Source: an uncultured Gammaproteobacteria bacterium
Lineage (GTDB): Bacteria > Patescibacteriota > Microgenomatia > UBA10105 > UBA927
Assembly: GCA_964515005.1 (NCBI GenBank)
Contig: CAZEVT010000001.1
Location: 125,521-189,520 of the forward strand
Direction of reading: 5' to 3'
DNA length: 64,000 nt
The notes under the pieces were generated by a model. It had not been told where the DNA came from and searched no databases. It saw only the letters and a program-made list of their open reading frames with translations. The translations under genes were made by a program, and so were the position numbers. This document shows, one piece after another, positions 11,244-45,439 of this stretch (position 1 is its first letter; each line of letters begins with the position of its first letter).

Positions 11244-11733
11244 CCGCCTCTTCGATGCACCACGGAGAATATGGAGCGGGGTTTGTTTTAATTTCCTCCA
11301 AAAACACGTTCCAGTCAATCCATTTCCAATCATCAACCTCGCTTGGATTCGGTGTCGGAGTGCCGTCAAAATGGCCAACATGAATTGGACAAATTTCGTT
11401 TTCTACGATTCCGTTCTTATCGGCAAACCGGTAGCGATACGGTGCAACTTCTTTTACCTCTGCACCCGTAATTCCCAACTCTTCCTTGAGTCTTCTGGTT
11501 GCCGCCTGGACTGTCGATTCGTTCGGGGCCAAATGCCCACATATGGTATTAGTCCACACTCCCGGAAAAGTTTTTTTACTTGCGGCTCGTTTGGTAACCA
11601 GGAGTTGTTTTTTTGAATTAAAAAGAAATAGGGAAAATGCCCGGTGAAGCGGTGTATCTTTTGTGTGAACTTCATCCTTAGGTTTTGTACCCAGGACGTT
11701 GTTTTGATCATCTACAAGAACCACAAGTTCCAT
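11209..11733 (-). CDS. idi: Isopentenyl-diphosphate delta-isomerase type 1 (Nudix fold)
   Basis: LHRAFSLFLFN...LLVTKRAASKKTFPGVWTNTICGH...GIVENEICPI aligns with E. coli Idi. The 3' end overlaps the tsaD 3' end by 35 nt (convergent). Confidence 0.8.
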   Translation of the reverse strand: MELVVLVDDQNNVLGTKPKDEVHTKDTPLHRAFSLFLFNSKKQLLVTKRAASKKTFPGVWTNTICGHLAPNESTVQAATRRLKEELGITGAEVKEVAPYRYRFADKNGIVENEICPIHVGHFDGTPTPNPSEVDDWKWIDWNVFLEEIKTNPAPYSPWCIEEAAILQQKDPELQ

Positions 11734-11835: not shown

Positions 11836-13224
11836 TTATCCTTTAAGAAGTGCTCCCATTGAGGTCTCCAGCTCAAACGCACGCTTTTTATTGGCGCCGA
11901 AGCATATATAGCCAAACCGGTGTGTCGAGAGCGCACTCACACAGGTGATAACAATGCCCTCACCGGTTTGTTTATCAAAAAGAATGGGGGCAAGAACGGT
12001 TCGGAGCTGATCAAACGTGAGCGCGCGTTTCTTGGGTAATTCAAATAAATTATTAAACAGGATATACGTCCGGTATAAAAAGTCCTTCCCGAACAACTGC
12101 TCAGCCGCGACAAACACGTGTGTGCCGCCGGTTCGTCGGACGTTACTCTCCGTCACATAGAGTTGCCCGTTTTTGGCGGCGAGGAAATCGACGTCATAAT
12201 AGCCACGGTACCCCGATGCCCGGTACTGTTCGCCGATATAAAACCCTGTGTCAATCATCCGGGCAAGCAAACGGTCGGTGACGACATCATTGCCGATTTC
12301 CATACCCTTAAATACTCCCTGGGTTACCCGCATGCCGCCGTAGTACAAGTAGTCTACTCGTCCGTTTTTCAATATTCGAAATTCTACATTGGGAAATCCT
12401 CCGGCAACCGCTGGATTAACCGAGATAAATGATTCAATCACAATAGGAAACATCCCCCAATAATCGTCCTTTTTTAAAACCTCGAGAATGGCCTGTTCGC
12501 ATACCGGGTAATCCGTCGGCAAATCACCTTCTTCAAACAGAAGCACGCCTGATCCTGCATGCCCTTTATTTGTTTTGATAACGACGCCGTGTTCTTTGAT
12601 GTATTTTTTTGCCGCGATTTTGGCGGCATCCACGATACCCATACAAATCATTCCCTCGGGCATGATGAGATCCGGTTCTGCGGCTCGACTTTCCCCAGCA
12701 AGTTGCCGAATACCGGACTTACTTCCGTAGAAATTTACCGTCCATGAATCTTCTTCTTCCGGCGCATCGGGCGTCATGACGCTAAGTCCTTTTCCTTTCA
12801 ACTCATCGACCAAATGAAGAAATTGTTCTGACGTTGTATAACTGGTCAGTACCAATCTCTTGGATCCGTTGGCCGCTGCCATAATTCCCTGCATGACCTC
12901 ATCGTCTTCGAGAATATCTTCGCAGATGACGCCTGAATGTTTTTGCGGCACAAGAATGCGAATACTTCGTTTCCCAAATAACTCCGTGTAGTACCGAAAA
13001 AATGATTCATCAACCTGCTGGGGAAAAATAAAAAGAATATTGTCTTCATCCGCGCAGGTGAATAAATCCCGTTCACACAAATCCGCATTTTCTTTTATTT
13101 CAAACAGTTTGGCCTTCGCGTCGGACATGGCGCTGATGAATGGCCACACGTCCTCCGACATGTTAAAAATGTATACAGTTGTTTCAGGAAATTTTTGTAT
13201 CGCGAGCGGCTCTTCCATTGGCAC
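11836..13224 (-). CDS. ATP-grasp fold ligase of unknown specificity
   Basis: A Gly-rich loop VIKTNKGHAGSGVLLF and the ATP-grasp catalytic signature YDVDFLAAKNGQLYVTESNVRRTGGT. Confidence 0.6.
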   Translation of the reverse strand: MPMEEPLAIQKFPETTVYIFNMSEDVWPFISAMSDAKAKLFEIKENADLCERDLFTCADEDNILFIFPQQVDESFFRYYTELFGKRSIRILVPQKHSGVICEDILEDDEVMQGIMAAANGSKRLVLTSYTTSEQFLHLVDELKGKGLSVMTPDAPEEEDSWTVNFYGSKSGIRQLAGESRAAEPDLIMPEGMICMGIVDAAKIAAKKYIKEHGVVIKTNKGHAGSGVLLFEEGDLPTDYPVCEQAILEVLKKDDYWGMFPIVIESFISVNPAVAGGFPNVEFRILKNGRVDYLYYGGMRVTQGVFKGMEIGNDVVTDRLLARMIDTGFYIGEQYRASGYRGYYDVDFLAAKNGQLYVTESNVRRTGGTHVFVAAEQLFGKDFLYRTYILFNNLFELPKKRALTFDQLRTVLAPILFDKQTGEGIVITCVSALSTHRFGYICFGANKKRAFELETSMGALLKG

Positions 13225-13278
13225 ATACGAGAATAACGCAATTGCGAAGATTGTAAAGGGGTTAAACGAAGAAATTTT

Positions 13279-15633
13279 TTATAATCTCGCCCGCTCCGAA
13301 ATCTCGGCTTCGATAAGTTCACGCGAACGACCGTACTTGAGGCGCGACAGTTGAATGATTGCTTCAGCAACTTTCGGATTTCTCCCGGCATTCACCGCAC
13401 TCATGTCTTTAGTTAAATCCATGCTGAAAGGCTTCACCGGTTCATTGTGCACATTGGTTTTAATGTACGCATTATATTTATCGATGTTGATGAGATCTGC
13501 CTCATTAAACGTCGGCTGGAATTCATGCTGGAGATAGTTAGCATCCGTCACTCCGACGCGAAACGCAACCACGGAGCCGACATTGCCAAACACCGCGTTT
13601 TTCACTTCCTCTTCCATCTGTCCGATAAATTGATTGGCAACGATCAAATTTAACCTATATTTCCGCGCCTCGGAAAGAATCTGTGCAAAGTCCGGCGTTG
13701 CAAAGTTTTGAAACTCATCAACATAGAGATAAAAGTCGCGCCGCTTGTCCTCGGGAATTTCCTGACGGCTCATGGCCGATATGAGAATGCGGGGAACCAG
13801 AATGAGACCCAAGAAGTTGCTGTTTTCCTCGCCCACTTTTCCCTTGGCAAGATTGACGAGCAGAATTTTCCCCTCATCCATCACTTTACGGAAATCAAAA
13901 CTCGACTCCGATTGTCCGATGATGTTGCGCATGAGTTTATTGGTGACAAACCGGCCGAATTTCGACACGATATAGTCGAGTACTTCCGACTTATGAAAGT
14001 CTGCGGTTTGGGCAATCTGATCCGTCCAGTATCTGCGGATGATGGGATCCTGCAACTTCGGTAACAATTCCTGGACAAATGAACTGTCGGTCAAAACCCG
14101 CACGACCTCGACAAACGTATTGCCGGGTTCCACCATGACGGTCAACATCGCGTTTCGGATGGCGTGTTCAAACCGGGGACCGATAATACCGGTTTTCATA
14201 GGGTCATAGAGCTTGTACATGAGTCCCACAATTGACGTCACGACAAAATGTTTCTGTTCTTCGGTTTTGGCCTCAAGCATGTTAAGCCCCATCGGTCGGT
14301 CGGTGTCCGACGGGTCAAAATAAATAACATCTTCAGCCCGCTCGGGAGGAATGCGGTTGATGACGCCGTCAATAAGATCTCCGTGGGGGTCAACAACGGC
14401 ACACCCCTTGCCTGCCCGAATATCCTGCACGATCATTTCCTCAAGAAGCTGCGATTTTCCGGTACCGGTTTTTCCGATGATGTAGACGTGGCGCCTTCGG
14501 TCTTCATCACTTATGAATATCGGCCGTTCCACTCCGCGGTACCGGGACTTTCCTAAATACAGGCCCTGCGTCGGAATCTGGGACGGAGCGGGCGCGCGTT
14601 TGGCGTTGAGCCAGAAAATATGGGCTGTTTCCACGGATTTGTTCGGCAAATGATAGACGGTTGCCAACTCGTCGCTGTTTAAAACGCTGTACTGCGGCAG
14701 AAATGATGGATTCACCGCCGGAAAGTAACGGTAGATAAAATCGAGCATAAAGAGTTTCTTCATAAACCACGGAAACTTCACTTTCGTAAAATTATTGTGG
14801 TCGCTTGAGAATTGGCCGAAACTCGTCAGGAGATTATCAAGATGCATTTTAGCGCTTTCGTCGGTCGCCGAAGACACCACCAGTCGAATGACCGCGTTAA
14901 ATCCGGGTTTGCCTGTTTTTTGCTCAACTGCTTCAAGGGACTTGGGGTCAATCTTGAAGCTCGCTTTTTCAGGATTTGCCTCATCTTTTTTGGTTTTTGA
15001 AATGTAGGAACGGCCCAGACTTCGCCACTTGCTTCCGGTCGGCTGAATCAGAAGTTGAATAACCGCGCCTTCCCCTTCGCGCATTTTCGCGAGTACCGAT
15101 GTGATCGAGGACAACGGATCGGTGGGTAAATCCCGGAATACGCGAATGGGCATATGGTTGGCGTTTTTGAGGCGAAGCGCGGCAAAAGCGACTTTCCCGT
15201 TTTGACTAAATATCGAATACTCTTCCACTTCTTTTATATCCGCCCCGGGATAAGCCCCGTGAATCTGTTTTTCGACAAGATCCATAAGCTTTCGGGGTAC
15301 CGAAACATAGAAGCGTATATCTTCTTGTCTTGCCACAATCTCAAATGAAAAATGCGGTTGAGGCTTCAAAAAAGACCAAAATCCGCTTTTATAAATGCTG
15401 TAGAGACTGGCAAACATCTGCTCCGCCGCATCTATTTTAATTTCATTCTCGCGCGGAACGGCAATTTGAAGGAGTACATATTCGAGCGACTTCTCTTCCC
15501 TGTCCCGGTATTTCCACAAGAGAAACGCAATATACGAAACAAGCGCAACGCCTCCAAGAACTAGGAGTAAAAAGACAAGCGTGACGCCAAATACTTGCAG
15601 CTGATAGATAATATCTAATGTTTGATCCTGCAT
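13279..15633 (-). CDS. Membrane-anchored FtsK/HerA/TraD-like P-loop ATPase (coupling-protein/DUF87 type)
   Basis: Two N-terminal TM helices. Walker A VYIIGKTGTGKSQLL...VVDPHGDLID resembles TraD/TrwB. Walker B YLYVDEFQNF. ARKYRLNLIVANQ resembles the HerA/VirB4 RKYG motif. Confidence 0.7.
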   Translation of the reverse strand: MQDQTLDIIYQLQVFGVTLVFLLLVLGGVALVSYIAFLLWKYRDREEKSLEYVLLQIAVPRENEIKIDAAEQMFASLYSIYKSGFWSFLKPQPHFSFEIVARQEDIRFYVSVPRKLMDLVEKQIHGAYPGADIKEVEEYSIFSQNGKVAFAALRLKNANHMPIRVFRDLPTDPLSSITSVLAKMREGEGAVIQLLIQPTGSKWRSLGRSYISKTKKDEANPEKASFKIDPKSLEAVEQKTGKPGFNAVIRLVVSSATDESAKMHLDNLLTSFGQFSSDHNNFTKVKFPWFMKKLFMLDFIYRYFPAVNPSFLPQYSVLNSDELATVYHLPNKSVETAHIFWLNAKRAPAPSQIPTQGLYLGKSRYRGVERPIFISDEDRRRHVYIIGKTGTGKSQLLEEMIVQDIRAGKGCAVVDPHGDLIDGVINRIPPERAEDVIYFDPSDTDRPMGLNMLEAKTEEQKHFVVTSIVGLMYKLYDPMKTGIIGPRFEHAIRNAMLTVMVEPGNTFVEVVRVLTDSSFVQELLPKLQDPIIRRYWTDQIAQTADFHKSEVLDYIVSKFGRFVTNKLMRNIIGQSESSFDFRKVMDEGKILLVNLAKGKVGEENSNFLGLILVPRILISAMSRQEIPEDKRRDFYLYVDEFQNFATPDFAQILSEARKYRLNLIVANQFIGQMEEEVKNAVFGNVGSVVAFRVGVTDANYLQHEFQPTFNEADLINIDKYNAYIKTNVHNEPVKPFSMDLTKDMSAVNAGRNPKVAEAIIQLSRLKYGRSRELIEAEISERARL

Positions 15634-15636
15634 AGC

Positions 15637-16008
15637 TTACACTTTCACCCTCAATACCTTCCCTCCAATCGCCTTAAGCCCCATGTGGAGCTGCTTGAGT
15701 CTTCTCATGCACCACGTCGCAAGCCACCGCCAGGAGCTGGCAATGCTTTGATTAAGCCCTGTTGCTATCTGATCATCGGTAAGAGGCAAAACAGTGCTTG
15801 TCGCAGGCATCGGGACATTTGCCCCAACCGGGGCGACTCCCATCTTGGCTACCGGCTGTGGCACCGGAATCGTCGTTGGGTGAATCGTCACGCCCGCCGA
15901 TGCGAGCTCTTTTGGAAGTGAATCTCCCTCGCCGCGCCCCGCCTCCGGGGCCGTGGTGGTCTCGGGGGCACTCGATGGGCCAGTGACTCTTTCGGGCAGA
16001 TCGCTCAT
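15637..16008 (-). CDS. Small Pro/Ala/Thr-rich hypothetical protein (123 aa)
   Basis: The ORF sits 3 nt upstream of the ATPase gene. It is low-complexity with a conserved-looking C-terminal segment SWRWLATWCMRRLKQLHMGL. Confidence 0.35.
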   Translation of the reverse strand: MSDLPERVTGPSSAPETTTAPEAGRGEGDSLPKELASAGVTIHPTTIPVPQPVAKMGVAPVGANVPMPATSTVLPLTDDQIATGLNQSIASSWRWLATWCMRRLKQLHMGLKAIGGKVLRVKV

Positions 16009-16020
16009 AGATTCATCATA

Positions 16021-17547
16021 TCACGTGGCGTACGCAAATATTACTCCTTGCGGCGCAAATTGTGGATAAAAGGTGTTTTTTTTGGCTTTTTTCTGTTTTG
16101 TTTTGCCCAAGTGGGTCAGATTTTGGACCGTCTTCATCCCGCCCTCGCGTATCATCGTAAGATGCCAAATGATCGCAAGGAGTATCCACCGAGTAAGCTC
16201 GCGTTGAACAAGACGTTCCGAAATTGCTCTAATTTTTATTTTGCTATCTTCTAACGGAACATGACTGCGTTTCTGCAGGAAGATCCACCATACAAAAGCG
16301 AGTGCAAAATCGAGTACTTGCTCCCGTTTCCTCTGTTCGGGCCTCCTAAGACGTATCTTATCCATTCGTTCTTTCTTTCGAATAAGTTTTTTGGCAAGCA
16401 TCAGTAAGCGAACAATTTTTTCCGTCTTCACTTTTTCCTTTTGCCTCATTGGCTTGGCTTCAATAACTATTTTTTTCTTTTTCAATACTCTTTTTTCCAT
16501 CAACAAAACTCTTTGCTCCCTCTTTGATTGAACCGTGCGTTTCTTTTCCATTTTTCTTAATACACGCACTTCTTTCTTCATTTTTATTCTTTTTGCTTTT
16601 TTTTCATGTCGGGCAATAGATTTTTTCATTTCGGGAATAATCATTCTAGATCTTAATTTCATTTCGCTTGCCAAAAGTATCTGCGGAGTTTGCAGAGCTT
16701 GAGGCAGTTTTTTCTTATTACGTTTTACTTCCGTATGCTTCTTGTGATCGATAAATTTAACTTCGGCCACCGATTTCGGCTTTTGCCGTAGCATATTTTT
16801 GACACGATCGGTAAATGATTGTTTTAGAGATTGACGCATGTCTTCTACGGGTCTGCTGTGTCGTCTTTCAATATACCTTTGTACAGAACGCACTGTATGT
16901 CCAACCTCCCTCATCGTTTGTTTGCCGGCATAATGAACAACATCAATAGCCTGATTCGCAATATGCACAGGTAATGGCTTATCAGTTAATATAAAGACGT
17001 CTTTCGCAGGTTGAATTTTTAGTAAGTTAGAAAATGAGTCTTTTGCAACGGACTGAATAGCATCAAAACTGTGCTTGTTCTCAGTTGAGATGATAGCGGT
17101 AGTCCCTTTACCTGTATTGTGGTCAAACTTCATTACCCATACATCTTTATAATCCCCATCATTTCTGTGATAACTCGTCACAACGTGTGTCGCACCGTTT
17201 CGAATAGACTCCTGCATCAACATGTCCGCTTGTTCCTGGACCAATGAGTACTGCTCCGGGTTTAATCGACGAGCTTTCTCATGAAGTTCATTTAACGTAC
17301 TTCCGTACTCGGGATAATATACCTCCCCCTTCTCATTCAAAACAAAATTAGGCCCCGGATATTCTGTTTTCCCCGACAGCTCGTTATTGATTGATGCCAT
17401 ATCTTGCTTATATCGGGGACGAAAAAGACGGGCAGTTTCGTGGCGGACTTCTGAGGGTAACCAATCTGTGTGCTGCGAGGCTACCTGCGTGTTTAGTTCT
17501 TCGTAGGATAAAAAAAATGTTTGTCTTTTACAATCGCATGATGGCAT
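16021..17547 (-). CDS. Hypothetical protein with an extremely K/R-rich central region (~130 aa) and C-terminal hydrophobic helices
   Basis: A globular N-terminal domain of about 270 aa. The central stretch KKAKRIKMKKEVRVLRKMEKKRTVQSKREQRV... is highly basic. Hydrophobic segments FALAFVWWIFL and WILLAIIWHLTMI follow. Confidence 0.4.
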   Translation of the reverse strand: MPSCDCKRQTFFLSYEELNTQVASQHTDWLPSEVRHETARLFRPRYKQDMASINNELSGKTEYPGPNFVLNEKGEVYYPEYGSTLNELHEKARRLNPEQYSLVQEQADMLMQESIRNGATHVVTSYHRNDGDYKDVWVMKFDHNTGKGTTAIISTENKHSFDAIQSVAKDSFSNLLKIQPAKDVFILTDKPLPVHIANQAIDVVHYAGKQTMREVGHTVRSVQRYIERRHSRPVEDMRQSLKQSFTDRVKNMLRQKPKSVAEVKFIDHKKHTEVKRNKKKLPQALQTPQILLASEMKLRSRMIIPEMKKSIARHEKKAKRIKMKKEVRVLRKMEKKRTVQSKREQRVLLMEKRVLKKKKIVIEAKPMRQKEKVKTEKIVRLLMLAKKLIRKKERMDKIRLRRPEQRKREQVLDFALAFVWWIFLQKRSHVPLEDSKIKIRAISERLVQRELTRWILLAIIWHLTMIREGGMKTVQNLTHLGKTKQKKAKKNTFYPQFAPQGVIFAYAT

Positions 17548-42224: not shown

Positions 42225-42687
42225 AGCGATTGATGGTAATAACTTTAGACTCGTTGGTAAGGGTCTGCGTCAGGGTAACCGAGTTTGCGGCATCGGAGAA
42301 TCCCACGACGTCTCCGCTTCCTTTGTCAAATATGATGGACGCGCCAGGAAGATCAATGACGCTAAAGGTGATATTCGTAGGAAGCGGGAATGCTGCGTTT
42401 GTCGGATCTGCCCCGTTAAAACTTGTCCCTTTAAAAAGGACATACTGATTTGTTTGGAAATTGATACCAAATGCCTGTGCCGTCGTCTCACCCTGGGTAT
42501 ACCCGGACATCGCTTTGGTCTGCGCCCCACGCATATCAGCCAACACCGTCGTTACTGTTGCGCTCAATGGAGCTCGCCGTTCAATACTGGTTGCCCGAAC
42601 AATGCTCAACGCCAGAAGAGTCGTCATAATTCCCATGACAACGAGTACTTCTATGAATGTAAAACCTTGCTTTTGCATGGTAATCAA
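42199..42687 (-). CDS. Prepilin-type minor pilin
   Basis: QGFTFIEVLVVMGIMTTLLALSIV. Confidence 0.75.
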   Translation of the reverse strand: MITMQKQGFTFIEVLVVMGIMTTLLALSIVRATSIERRAPLSATVTTVLADMRGAQTKAMSGYTQGETTAQAFGINFQTNQYVLFKGTSFNGADPTNAAFPLPTNITFSVIDLPGASIIFDKGSGDVVGFSDAANSVTLTQTLTNESKVITINRYGAVISVE

Positions 42688-43739
42688 CGTCTTGCCCCCA
42701 CCTGACTGATGAGTCCATAGACCGGCGCGATAATCGCAAGCATCATTCCTCCGACGACCACCCCGACTGCCACGAGTAGTATAGGTTCCAAAAGCGAAGT
42801 AAGTGTTTTGAGGGTGTTGGTCACCTCATAATCAAAATATTCCGATATATCCTGCATGGATTTATCGAGCGTCCCGGTTTTTTCCCCGGCTTCCATAAGT
42901 TTGATCATAAGGGGCGGAATATATCCTTTTGACGCACGAAACCCTTCGGACAACTTCTTACCCGCAAATACCATATCACGCGAGGTCTTAATGATTTCCG
43001 CAGTTTTTTTTCGGATAACCACATCGGAGGTAAGCTCGAGCGCGGACGTTATGGAAAGGCCGGAAGAAAGGAGTAGATGCAAACTACGGGAAAATCTTGT
43101 AATGTCAATTTGTATAATCAGATTCGACACGATAGGCAGGGAATAAAAAAGATCAAGAAACACGGCCCGCTTATTCCGATACATGATAATCGCCAGAGCG
43201 ACAAAAAGAAACAGTCCTAAAAGAAAAAGTGCCGTGTTTTTCACAAGGAGATTAGAAAGAAAAATAAGAATTTGTGTCGGGAGAGGAAGATCAACCCGAA
43301 GCCTCTCAAATACCGTCGAAATTTTCGGCACAACAACCACCAGAATCATAAGCAGTACTCCAAAAAACACCACGACGATAAAAAGGGGGTACACCATTGC
43401 TGAACGCACTTTATCCCCAAATTCAATTTCTTTTTGAATGGTCACTTTGAGGTCCCGAAGCGTCACGTCGAGCGTCCCTGCTTCCTCCGATGCTTTGATG
43501 ACGGAAACCGTCACCTTATCAAACACCCGGGGAAATTTCGACAACGTCACATACACGTGTTTCCCCTGAATAAGATCCTCATGGAGCGTCTCGAGAATTT
43601 TCTTTTGTCCACCCTTGGCATCCTCAAGAAGGGAGTTGATAACATCCAGTATGGGAATGCCGGCGGTAAGCATGGTCGCCAGGCTCCCGATAAACGCTAT
43701 TTTTTCACTATTTTTGAGTTTTATATTTTGGTCCGTCAT
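42684..43739 (-). CDS. pilC: Type IV pilus inner-membrane platform protein PilC (GspF family)
   Basis: Duplicated GspF-like helical domains with three TM segments. It overlaps pilB by 4 nt. Confidence 0.88.
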   Translation of the reverse strand: MTDQNIKLKNSEKIAFIGSLATMLTAGIPILDVINSLLEDAKGGQKKILETLHEDLIQGKHVYVTLSKFPRVFDKVTVSVIKASEEAGTLDVTLRDLKVTIQKEIEFGDKVRSAMVYPLFIVVVFFGVLLMILVVVVPKISTVFERLRVDLPLPTQILIFLSNLLVKNTALFLLGLFLFVALAIIMYRNKRAVFLDLFYSLPIVSNLIIQIDITRFSRSLHLLLSSGLSITSALELTSDVVIRKKTAEIIKTSRDMVFAGKKLSEGFRASKGYIPPLMIKLMEAGEKTGTLDKSMQDISEYFDYEVTNTLKTLTSLLEPILLVAVGVVVGGMMLAIIAPVYGLISQVGARR

Positions 43740-45439
43740 AAGGATTCCACTTTAGTGACGCGGATAACTTCATCTATGGTCGTGAGACCCCGTCTGACCT
43801 TATCCAGCCCATCATCAAGCATCGTCGTCATCCCCTCGTCAATCGCCGATTTATTGATCGCATCCGAATCATTCTTTTCCGTTACTCTCCGCCGGATCTC
43901 CTTTGAAACTTCCAGCACTTCAAACACCCCGAGGCGGCCCGAATAGCCGGTAGTATGACAAATCTTACAGCCCTTTCCTTTATAAAGGGTCAACGCTGGT
44001 TCATCGCCGAAATGTTTTTTGATTACCTCCGCCGGCAAATGTCTGGCGAGCTCTTCCTGGGTGACCGTCTGTGTCGTTTTACACATGTCGCAGATTTTAC
44101 GCACCAGACGCTGGGCGATGATGATGTTGACGGTGGAGGCCACCAAAAACGGTTCGACTTTCATGTCCGAGAGTCTGGGAATAGCTGTTGCCGCATCGTT
44201 GGTGTGAAGGGTCGAAAGTACTAAGTGACCGGTGAGGGCGGCGTTGACCGCGATCCCCGCCGTCTCACTGTCGCGAATCTCGCCGACGAAGATGATATTG
44301 GGGTCCTGGCGGAGAATTGACCGCAGCCCGTTGGCAAATGTGAGGTTGGTCTTCGGGTTGACCTGTACCTGATTGGCTCCCTTGATGCGGTACTCGACCG
44401 GATCTTCCACCGTCGTGATGTTTTTTTCACGCGTGTTGAGGATTTTCAATATGGAATAAATCGACGTTGTTTTCCCCGACCCAGTCGGGCCGGTCGAGAG
44501 AATCATGCCGTATGATTTGTTGTATGCAGCCGTCACTTTTTGCAAATCTTTTTCACTCATGCCCAAATCCGTCAGTGTAATCTCCCGACTCCGCGAAGAC
44601 AAAAGACGAAGGACTGCTTTTTCTCCCTCGACGATCGGGATAATGGACACACGGATATCCAGATTTTCCTCTTCAAGGGCAAGGCGCATCTTGCCGTCCT
44701 GCGCGCTCATGTGTTCATCGGTGCGAAGTCCGGAGAGTACTTTGATGCGCGTCATGATGCGGTCATGGAGCACTTTGGGAACCCGAAGCACCTCGTGAAG
44801 GACGCCGTCGATACGGAAACGGATGAGGGAATTGTGTTCTTCCGGTTCGATATGGATATCGGACGCCTTATCCTGATAGGCCGCGTCTATAAGGACGTCG
44901 ACGATTTTGGCAATCGGCAAATCATCATAGACTGCGGCAGTTGCTTTTTTAATATCTTCTTTCAAAAGCTCGTCGATCGTTTTTTGAAGGACTTTTTTGT
45001 AAACCTGCAGCGTATTTTCAATATCCCGGTCCGTTGCATAGTGGACAAATACCCGTGCATTTGTTTTTTTGGCAACCATCTCGACAATCGCGTTGTTGGC
45101 TGGATCCGATAAGGCCATCTTGACCCCGTTTTGATCGCGGGCAAATGCAATAGCTTTCTGCTTTTTGGCTGTTTTTTCCGGAATGATATGAAATACGTCC
45201 TCCGGAATCGTAAACGTGGAAAGAGCGACAAACGGTACGTTTAAAGACTGGGCAACAAGCGCACCTATTTGCTCATCAGTCAGTACCCCTTTTTCCACTA
45301 AGGCCGCAGACAACGGAACGTTAGCGGTTTCGGCAAATTTTATGGCTTCGGATAGTTTGGCCGGGTCACCGGTGCCACTCTTAGTCACGAGCGCCGCTAG
45401 CTCCTTGTTGGACAGGATCATAGATCTATCATACAACAA
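43736..45439 (-). CDS. pilB: Type IV pilus assembly ATPase PilB (GspE family)
   Basis: Walker A LSTGPTGSGKTTSIY, a CxxC tetracysteine region (CDMCKT...CKIC), and Asp and His boxes. Confidence 0.92.
   Translation of the reverse strand: MLYDRSMILSNKELAALVTKSGTGDPAKLSEAIKFAETANVPLSAALVEKGVLTDEQIGALVAQSLNVPFVALSTFTIPEDVFHIIPEKTAKKQKAIAFARDQNGVKMALSDPANNAIVEMVAKKTNARVFVHYATDRDIENTLQVYKKVLQKTIDELLKEDIKKATAAVYDDLPIAKIVDVLIDAAYQDKASDIHIEPEEHNSLIRFRIDGVLHEVLRVPKVLHDRIMTRIKVLSGLRTDEHMSAQDGKMRLALEEENLDIRVSIIPIVEGEKAVLRLLSSRSREITLTDLGMSEKDLQKVTAAYNKSYGMILSTGPTGSGKTTSIYSILKILNTREKNITTVEDPVEYRIKGANQVQVNPKTNLTFANGLRSILRQDPNIIFVGEIRDSETAGIAVNAALTGHLVLSTLHTNDAATAIPRLSDMKVEPFLVASTVNIIIAQRLVRKICDMCKTTQTVTQEELARHLPAEVIKKHFGDEPALTLYKGKGCKICHTTGYSGRLGVFEVLEVSKEIRRRVTEKNDSDAINKSAIDEGMTTMLDDGLDKVRRGLTTIDEVIRVTKVESL

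Follow-up and report, generated by a model that had tools for sequence, protein, structure and literature searches.

The 64,000-nucleotide stretch of contig CAZEVT010000001.1 analysed here (the window) carries four co-directional minus-strand genes followed by a gene for tRNA-Ile(UAU). The second and third genes encode a small protein of 123 amino acids (aa) and a membrane-anchored ATPase of 784 aa that resembles proteins of type IV secretion systems (T4SS), and this pair is the main subject of the present work. In gene order, the four open reading frames (ORFs) are separated by 12, 3, and 54 nt. A first-pass annotation, made from the sequence alone, regarded all four as one compact module. 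The coordinates, gaps, and adjoining tRNA that it gave were all reproduced, and the motifs that it quoted, GKTGTGKS, VVDPHGD, SEARKYRL, and ESNVRRTGGT, were all found in the translations. The features of the locus are as follows.

17547-16021, minus strand: gene for the 508 aa protein (ORF call; no library family match)
508 aa protein, residues ~1-210: variable globular N-terminal domain
508 aa protein, residues ~253-405: charged region rich in K, R, and E
508 aa protein, C-terminus: conserved module with two short hydrophobic segments, VLDFALAFVWWIFL and WILLAIIWHLTMIREGG, a Lys-rich tail, and a terminal GVIFAY
16008-15637, minus strand: gene for the 123 aa protein, putative small partner of the ATPase (ORF call; 67 homologues; stop 3 nt before the ATPase start)
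15633-13279, minus strand: gene for the 784 aa membrane-anchored ATPase of the VirB4/coupling-protein type (ORF call)
15600-15502, minus strand: N-terminal hydrophobic helix, ATPase residues ~12-44
15480-14644, minus strand: DUF8128 domain, predicted VirB4 N-terminal-domain fold, ATPase residues 52-330
14562-13282, minus strand: P-loop translocase domain with a helical insert at 458-572, ATPase residues 358-784
13224-11836, minus strand: gene for a predicted carboxylate-amine ligase of the PGM1/BesA ATP-grasp type, with a pre-ATP-grasp domain (462 aa; 460 aa according to gene callers)
11806-11734, minus strand: tRNA-Ile(UAU), downstream of the ligase gene

The interpretation that we favour, and consider reasonably probable, is that the conserved unit at this locus is a gene pair, the small upstream protein together with an apparently VirB4-like membrane ATPase, which forms part of the core across Patescibacteria, and that the surrounding region is the vertically inherited core chromosome of Gottesmanbacteria (Patescibacteria, or candidate phyla radiation, CPR) and not a discrete four-gene system.

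The ATPase gives weak, above-threshold Pfam matches to TrwB_AAD_bind, T4SS-DNA_transf, TraG-D_C, and DUF87, and its N-terminus is assigned to DUF8128 (PF26449) in precomputed annotation. It is unmatched by CagE_TrbE_VirB, the Pfam family of the VirB4 N-terminus. The curated NCBIfam models for TraD, VirD4, and VirB4 score far under their cut-offs: the best model of the type IV coupling protein (T4CP) kind is SXT_TraD with 51.2 bits versus a cut-off of 366, the CD1115 VirD4-like model reaches 33.2 bits versus 250, and TIGR00929 (VirB4) reaches 19.4 bits versus 643. Across a 22-sequence alignment of the family, the Walker A residues G387, G390, G392, and K393, the Walker B residues D639 and E640 (DEF), and R657/K658 are invariant. 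The AlphaFold2 model of the full-length protein, with a predicted local distance difference test score (pLDDT) of 87.3 and a predicted template modelling score (pTM) of 0.77, starts with a long helix, continues with an alpha/beta domain (residues 52-330), and ends in a P-loop domain into which a helical segment is inserted. The two N-terminal transmembrane (TM) helices described earlier reduce to one hydrophobic stretch of ~33 residues, which is modelled as a single helix spanning residues 4-49. A Foldseek search with the full-length model returns TrwK/VirB4 as the best match (E 2.6e-17), and both the N-terminal and the C-terminal domain carry VirB4 folds. The motor itself is of the FtsK/HerA type, with a P-loop, Walker A and B motifs, and an all-alpha insert, and is structurally similar to TrwB. 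Pfam, NCBIfam, and Foldseek all agree with the previous placement of the protein among membrane-anchored ATPases of the FtsK/HerA superfamily, of the T4SS kind. Because of the AlphaFold2 model and its best match to TrwK/VirB4, DUF8128 is predicted to have the fold of the VirB4 N-terminal domain, and the ATPase appears to be built like VirB4 and unlike a canonical coupling protein.

The ATPase family comprises 24,087 50%-identity clusters at E<=1e-3 and 6,398 at E<=1e-30. Its sequence conservation suits a core gene, since the window ATPase shares 80% identity or more with over 120 90%-identity clusters. The names attached to the homologues are Candidatus Gottesmanbacteria or Patescibacteria, and 597 genome loci were confirmed, spanning the CPR classes. 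Co-conservation was assessed with a profile-guided scan of one genome per species, which returned 80 ATPase loci from Gottesmanbacteria, Levy-, Curtiss-, Woese-, Roizman-, Davies-, Shapiro-, and Collierbacteria, Dojkabacteria, WWE3, and Berkel-, Uhr-, Magasanik-, Doudna-, Falkow-, Staskawicz-, Peri-, and Saccharibacteria; the ORFs of these relatives were searched with all four window proteins. Four of the loci (L045, L049, L053, and L062) contain a pair of ATPase-family ORFs, either adjacent or separated by a few genes, and the pair in L053 may be one gene split by a frameshift.

A hidden Markov model (HMM) of the 123 aa family finds members in 17 loci across Microgenomates lineages, always directly upstream of the ATPase gene at a distance of -10 to +32 nt. 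Of 77 loci across CPR classes, 54 (70%) have a small co-directional gene at most 150 nt before the ATPase, compared with 237 of 619 other genes in those loci (Fisher p 1.4e-7). The first of these counts is a lower bound because gene calling was crude, and on locus-by-locus inspection a small co-directional ORF abuts the ATPase gene almost everywhere, its family changing with the lineage. The Microgenomates type of small protein is characterized by LPLTDDQI...RWLAEWC.RRLK, the Parcubacteria type by WLK.IPGVN.FFLEQEAKIKTDKI, the Saccharibacteria type by DLIEKEWV...DPY, and the Staskawiczbacteria type by DPYILD..HD.L. The small gene is probably translationally coupled to the ATPase gene.

In the window, the N-terminal half of the 123 aa protein is of low complexity and variable, and the C-terminal core is conserved, with the motifs LPKEVASAGV..HPT.., LPLTDDQIA, and SSWRWLAxWCxRRLKQ. 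In an alignment of the family, for which 67 homologues were found, D78, D79, Q80, I81, W95, L96, A97, and C100 are invariant. Hydropathy predicts no TM segment. The label of a Pro/Ala/Thr-rich peptide is correct in direction but overstated, as these three residues make up 31% of the protein overall and 40% of its first 80 aa. Scans with Pfam, NCBIfam, PADLOC, and PHROG are blank for both this protein and the 508 aa protein, in agreement with the absence of a library family for either.

The 508 aa protein is a class-specific companion of the ATPase, and its detectable relatives are confined to Gottesmanbacteria. Its start is backed by an AGGAG 5 nt upstream and by similarity to the L084 version from residue 4 onwards; gene callers place the start at Met50. 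The C-terminal module is kept in ~17 of 23 distinct Gottesmanbacteria loci, with a few loci lacking it, and is ordered as the first hydrophobic segment, W.LLSIIWYL.MIREQG, a Lys-rich stretch, and the terminal GVIFAY.S. The two hydrophobic helices proposed for this end do correspond to two conserved segments, but at just 13-15 residues each they fall under the 19-residue Kyte-Doolittle threshold for a TM helix. Similarly, the ~130 aa stretch that had been called almost pure Lys/Arg is rich in basic residues but far from pure: K+R amounts to 38% in the best 130 aa and 44% in the best 100, with ~30% hydrophobic residues. The N-terminal domains of the family are mosaic, the window version being like that of L084 (residues 4-201) and the L002 version like that of L005, and the middle region of the L004 version is acidic, not basic. 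A protein that evolves fast and as a mosaic, yet keeps its membrane-proximal tail, might be an adaptor, a cargo, or a surface protein. Homology to Levybacteria genes two positions upstream of the ATPase, suspected from the motif SPPG..Y, was rejected (hhalign probability 0.07%, no BLAST matches).

Several observations weigh against the gene-pair interpretation. The sequence profiles of the motor domain favour T4CP families over VirB4, and the VirB4-like call depends on predicted structures. It is gene position that ties the 123 aa and 508 aa proteins to the ATPase. A common homology of the lineage-specific small proteins was tried with hhalign on four families and gave a probability of <1%; since they are not detectably homologous, what looks like one conserved partner may in fact be a set of unrelated genes occupying the same position. 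The scan for relaxase and T4SS genes covered window ORFs, and a T4SS may be encoded elsewhere in the genome. Finally, the ligase gene adjoins the ATPase in 72% of informative Gottesmanbacteria loci, and a lineage-specific functional link between the two may exist.

The fourth protein had been named an ATP-grasp enzyme, which the Pre-ATP-grasp and PGM1_C families of Pfam and the structure 8ynd in PDB bear out. The PreAtp-grasp match scores 27.9 bits (cut-off 27.5) and PGM1_C scores 20.1 bits, under its cut-off of 22.5. Against PDB, residues 52-432 match 8ynd, an "ATP-grasp peptide ligase", at E 2.8e-11, and PGM1 matches at E 1.2e-7. NCBIfam gives matches to BesA and LdmS, with all curated models far under their cut-offs. 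Because 8ynd, PGM1, and BesA are its closest relatives, the protein is assigned by sequence as a carboxylate-amine (amino-acid or peptide) ligase. No precursor peptide or biosynthetic cluster is recognisable around its gene. The ligase family gives 807 hits, of which the named ones all belong to Patescibacteria, Gottesmanbacteria, or Microgenomates; the ATPase gives more than 7,600.

Two of the genes, that of the ATP-grasp ligase and, outside a single class, that of the 508 aa protein, lack the co-conservation expected of one four-gene system. The ligase gene adjoins the ATPase in one of the 80 genome loci (L004) and is missing from L005 despite an ATPase that is 80% identical. Viewed from the ligase side, a metagenome scan gave 80 loci at 53-85% identity, 68 of them informative, with at least 600 nt of upstream sequence. 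The ATPase lies directly upstream of the ligase gene in 49 of these 68 (72%) and the ligase gene is elsewhere in 19 (~28%). The gene downstream of the ligase is that of isopentenyl pyrophosphate (IPP) isomerase (IDI) in 31 of 39 loci with the ATPase and in one of 15 loci without it. That IDI and the ATPase are present or missing together indicates two whole genomic contexts for the ligase and not selection for linkage, and the linkage of ligase and ATPase is no stronger than that of ligase and the housekeeping gene IDI. In one example of the alternative context, the ligase gene has a cupin gene on one side and a series of small unknown ORFs on the other, with rpoD and dnaG near. In L086 (7392-10812; also in L087), five or six small ORFs of 108-259 aa come after the ligase gene, with rpoD and dnaG just past them; the first four were scanned and have no Pfam match, and the stops and starts at the first four junctions overlap or nearly abut. 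These small ORFs may be the real operon partners of the ligase.

In four loci of sister lineages (L006, L008, L013, and L016), the next gene after the ATPase is tRNA-Ile(UAU), at most a few tens of nt away, and for this reason the adjacency of the tRNA is read as inherited synteny. All Gottesmanbacteria loci have one extra gene between the two. It is the PGM1-type ATP-grasp ligase in the window, L002, L004, and L084, a D-Ala-D-Ala ligase (Ddl) in L005 (10359-11426), and a major facilitator superfamily (MFS) transporter in L012 (10327-11496). Kinship of the window ligase and the Ddl was considered and dropped, as they share no sequence similarity; two unrelated ATP-grasp ligases in one slot may be coincidence or functional replacement. 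The simplest reading is that the linkage of ATPase and tRNA-Ile is ancestral and the slot between them variable. The ATP-grasp ligase is a lineage-specific occupant of this slot, outside the conserved core. An extended -10-like element, TGGTATAAT, is present at 11825-11817 before the tRNA, and the ATG of the IPP isomerase gene begins at 11733, the base right after the tRNA 3' end. Bacteria normally read AUA with a lysidine-modified CAU tRNA, which makes a tRNA-Ile(UAU) unusual; this unusual tRNA is kept near the ATPase across Microgenomates.

The four genes are flanked upstream by NrdR, NrdJ, and a PduO-type adenosyltransferase and downstream by IDI, TsaD, a VanW-like protein, a solute-binding protein, and GroES/EL. 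The order of these flanking housekeeping genes is the same in relatives according to a synteny comparison. The other recurrent neighbours of the ATPase are also housekeeping genes that vary by lineage, with NrdJ and PduO in 11-12 loci, DnaX in 12 loci, and CysRS, GyrB, SmpB, and CorA in fewer. In 19 of 83 loci, among them L006, L008, L013, L015, L016, L020, L027, L031, L033, L039, and L047, a convergent gene for an XerC/XerD-like tyrosine recombinase (~288 aa, E 5e-46 to XerD) occupies one of the three positions downstream of the ATPase, and it is often followed by a conserved protein of ~115 aa without a family match. In 15 loci of the Parcubacteria type (within L048-L082), the gene at position +1 or +2 encodes a conserved protein of ~210 aa, between the ATPase and dnaX, that has no Pfam or NCBIfam match and could be a second partner of the ATPase in these lineages.

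Elsewhere in the window lie the type IV pilus genes PilB and PilC, two class A penicillin-binding proteins, DnaG, and RpoD. PilB (45439-43736, minus strand) and PilC (43739-42684, minus strand) are followed by a 648 aa ORF (42224-40278, minus strand) without a Pfam match. The statement that no conjugation, secretion, or defence component sits nearby therefore holds for the flanks, within ~25 kb, but not for the window, which has PilB/PilC at 42684-45439. No VirB4 was found among the large window ORFs scanned. The guanine plus cytosine (GC) content is ordinary save for a dip over the Lys-rich coding stretch. A promoter and terminator scan of the locus gave counts at or below the shuffled expectation, with a promoter-like TTTACA-16-TATTCT in the 54 nt gap before the ligase gene as weak evidence, and a tandem-repeat search returned nothing notable, only short arrays.

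The rival that we take most seriously, unlikely as it is, makes the ATPase a VirD4-type coupling protein of a chromosomal Patescibacteria T4SS, encoded away from virB4, which is common for coupling proteins, and passing on substrates to that machine. The T4CP leaning of the motor profiles and the TrwB-like motor fold fit it. Canonical T4CPs, however, do not have the ~280-residue VirB4-type N-terminal domain, the NCBIfam TraD/VirD4 models remain far under their cut-offs (e.g., 51 versus 366 bits), and the window ORFs scanned contain no relaxase or T4SS gene. In addition, full-length homologues occur in Bacillus phages (SPO1 and G), and the SPO1 neighbourhood, the sole one inspected, has no annotated T4SS gene. 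According to passages of Quinonero-Coronel et al. 2025 (PMC12102498), 5,713 VirD4-like homologues are present in 2,918 of 3,035 Patescibacteria genomes, just 148 of the 5,713 are near virB4, and the t4cp homologue of Southlakia is non-essential, unlike other T4SS genes, which are reported essential. A much less probable proposal is an FtsK-like DNA translocase, acting in dimer resolution with a Xer recombinase or in DNA uptake or export. Membership of the FtsK/HerA superfamily, the XerC/D-like gene just downstream in 19 of 83 loci, and DnaX and GyrB neighbours in other classes speak for it. The idea that the ATPase replaces FtsK loses weight from papers in which FtsK is mentioned for Saccharibacteria and from a lower structural score to FtsK.

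For the locus as a whole, the four genes might form a true Gottesmanbacteria operon in which the ligase modifies the 123 aa or the 508 aa protein by adding amino acids or peptides and the ATPase exports or inserts the product. This is improbable, despite the co-directional genes with short gaps, the activity of PGM1-family ligases on peptides and amino acids, and the adjacency of ATPase and ligase, which is seen in 49 of 68 informative loci and persists where ligase identity is as low as ~53%. Against it, the ligase gene is missing from 79 of 80 ATPase loci, one of them with an 80%-identical ATPase, and 19 of 68 ligase loci are without the ATPase, of which 14 of the 15 with both flanks readable are also without IDI. 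The ligase-ATPase adjacency is kept no better than the adjacency to housekeeping IDI, in relatives this slot is empty or occupied by Ddl or an MFS transporter, and the promoter-like sequence in the 54 nt gap counts, weakly, in the same direction. The possibility of a mobile or defence element integrated at tRNA-Ile is effectively refuted; a tRNA-adjacent integrated element had also been raised in the first-pass annotation. The module abuts a tRNA, and the ATPase does match PADLOC mad8 (E 1.5e-18), HerA-type models more weakly, and PHROG 5156 (E 1.4e-98). Yet the flanks are housekeeping genes syntenic in relatives, the linkage of ATPase and tRNA-Ile is conserved across Microgenomates and inherited, and the genes sit 5' of the tRNA. 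No integrase occurs among the neighbours scanned, an att-site search around the module returned chance-level 17-19 nt pairs only, and the Lys-rich coding stretch is the one GC anomaly. There is no other defence gene, and the other three proteins have no PADLOC match; the ATPase motor is the one component of the MADS system (mad8) or of HerA-type systems that is matched.

If the gene-pair interpretation is correct, the ATPase would oligomerise at the cytoplasmic membrane, by analogy with VirB4 and coupling proteins, and its use of ATP would drive the assembly of a membrane complex or the passage of a substrate. Its N-terminal domain may dock small membrane-proximal partners. Candidates for docking are the conserved C-terminal helix of the 123 aa protein, which is amphipathic and Trp-rich, and, in Gottesmanbacteria, the C-terminal hydrophobic and Lys-rich module of the 508 aa protein. 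Within the Gottesmanbacteria lineage, the PGM1-type amino-acid or peptide ligase would have entered the slot that separates the ATPase from tRNA-Ile(UAU); its action is most likely independent of the pair. A bolder version, which we regard as tentative and rather doubtful, treats the DUF8128 ATPase and its small upstream neighbour as an autonomous translocation or assembly machine that descends from VirB4, is passed on vertically as part of the Patescibacteria core, and works independently of known T4SS. The cells are epibionts with a single membrane, and nucleic acid or protein might be what the machine carries across it. In Gottesmanbacteria, the 508 aa protein, which evolves fast and ends in a Lys-rich tail, would then serve as membrane adaptor or cargo, and the relatives in SPO1-like Bacillus phages would hint at an ancient phage link.

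Patescibacteria account for a large share of bacterial diversity, are host-dependent, and have few conserved genes with a known role. The ATPase family is among their most widespread and best-conserved uncharacterised proteins; the label given to it to date is "orphan coupling protein". Its predicted VirB4 architecture and the frequent small upstream gene provide handles for structural and genetic work in cultivable Saccharibacteria. The apparent four-gene system is mostly inherited synteny, and a false call of a new system is avoided.

Compared with VirB4/TrwK, the ATPase has a sequence identity of just ~8-13% and carries an N-terminal hydrophobic helix of its own, and the small upstream protein differs from VirB3 in that no TM helix is predicted for it. 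Neither the window ORFs scanned nor the clustered neighbours within ~5 genes in the 80 other loci, which were only partly annotated, include virB3/6/8 or pilin genes. In contrast to the T4CPs TrwB, VirD4, TraD, DotL, and Cagbeta, the ATPase has an extra domain of ~280 residues, predicted to be of the VirB4 type, between the membrane helix and the motor, and its gene is chromosomal, core, and vertically inherited, lacking a relaxase or T4SS context in the window scan and having housekeeping genes as conserved neighbours in the 80 loci. The defence and repair ATPases HerA and DptH/DndH differ in their partners, as no NurA, Sir2, Dnd, or methyltransferase partner accompanies the window ATPase in its housekeeping context; moreover, its N-terminal domain appears to be of the VirB4 type and not a HAS barrel. 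The window ligase shares a pre-ATP-grasp domain and an ATP-grasp core with the PGM1, BesA, and LdmS ligases but has no evident biosynthetic cluster. Bacillus phage SPO1 gp27.4 and phage G gp156 are similar to the ATPase over its full length, including DUF8128 (residues ~46-725, ~21-23% identity, E down to 5e-42). Both are phage-borne, uncharacterised, and very divergent from the ATPase, and several tiny ORFs (48-141 aa) lie upstream of SPO1 gp27.4 (L168, 3441-6161).

The closest parallel is provided by the orphan VirD4-like homologues of Patescibacteria (PMC12102498), which are likewise abundant across the group and rarely beside virB4, and, as far as the searched passages go, the two are very probably the same gene set. 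That study counted homologues by T4CP profiles, and its authors put forward exaptation of the orphan genes as a possibility. Its searched passages do not refer to a VirB4-like N-terminal domain or a conserved small upstream gene, and "ATP-grasp" is not in the text; a 2025 T4SS review repeats the T4SS picture, and its searched passages likewise mention neither such a domain nor an upstream partner gene. A literature search for DUF8128 found no paper in the library covered. The earlier remark that no described system has this gene set remains valid for the function, but the domain is filed in Pfam as DUF8128 and, in the passages cited, orphan VirD4-like ATPases are on record. Set against these parts of the literature, the orphan VirD4-like genes of Patescibacteria had already been reported (PMC12102498), and the new elements are the predicted VirB4-like N-terminal domain and the conserved small upstream gene.

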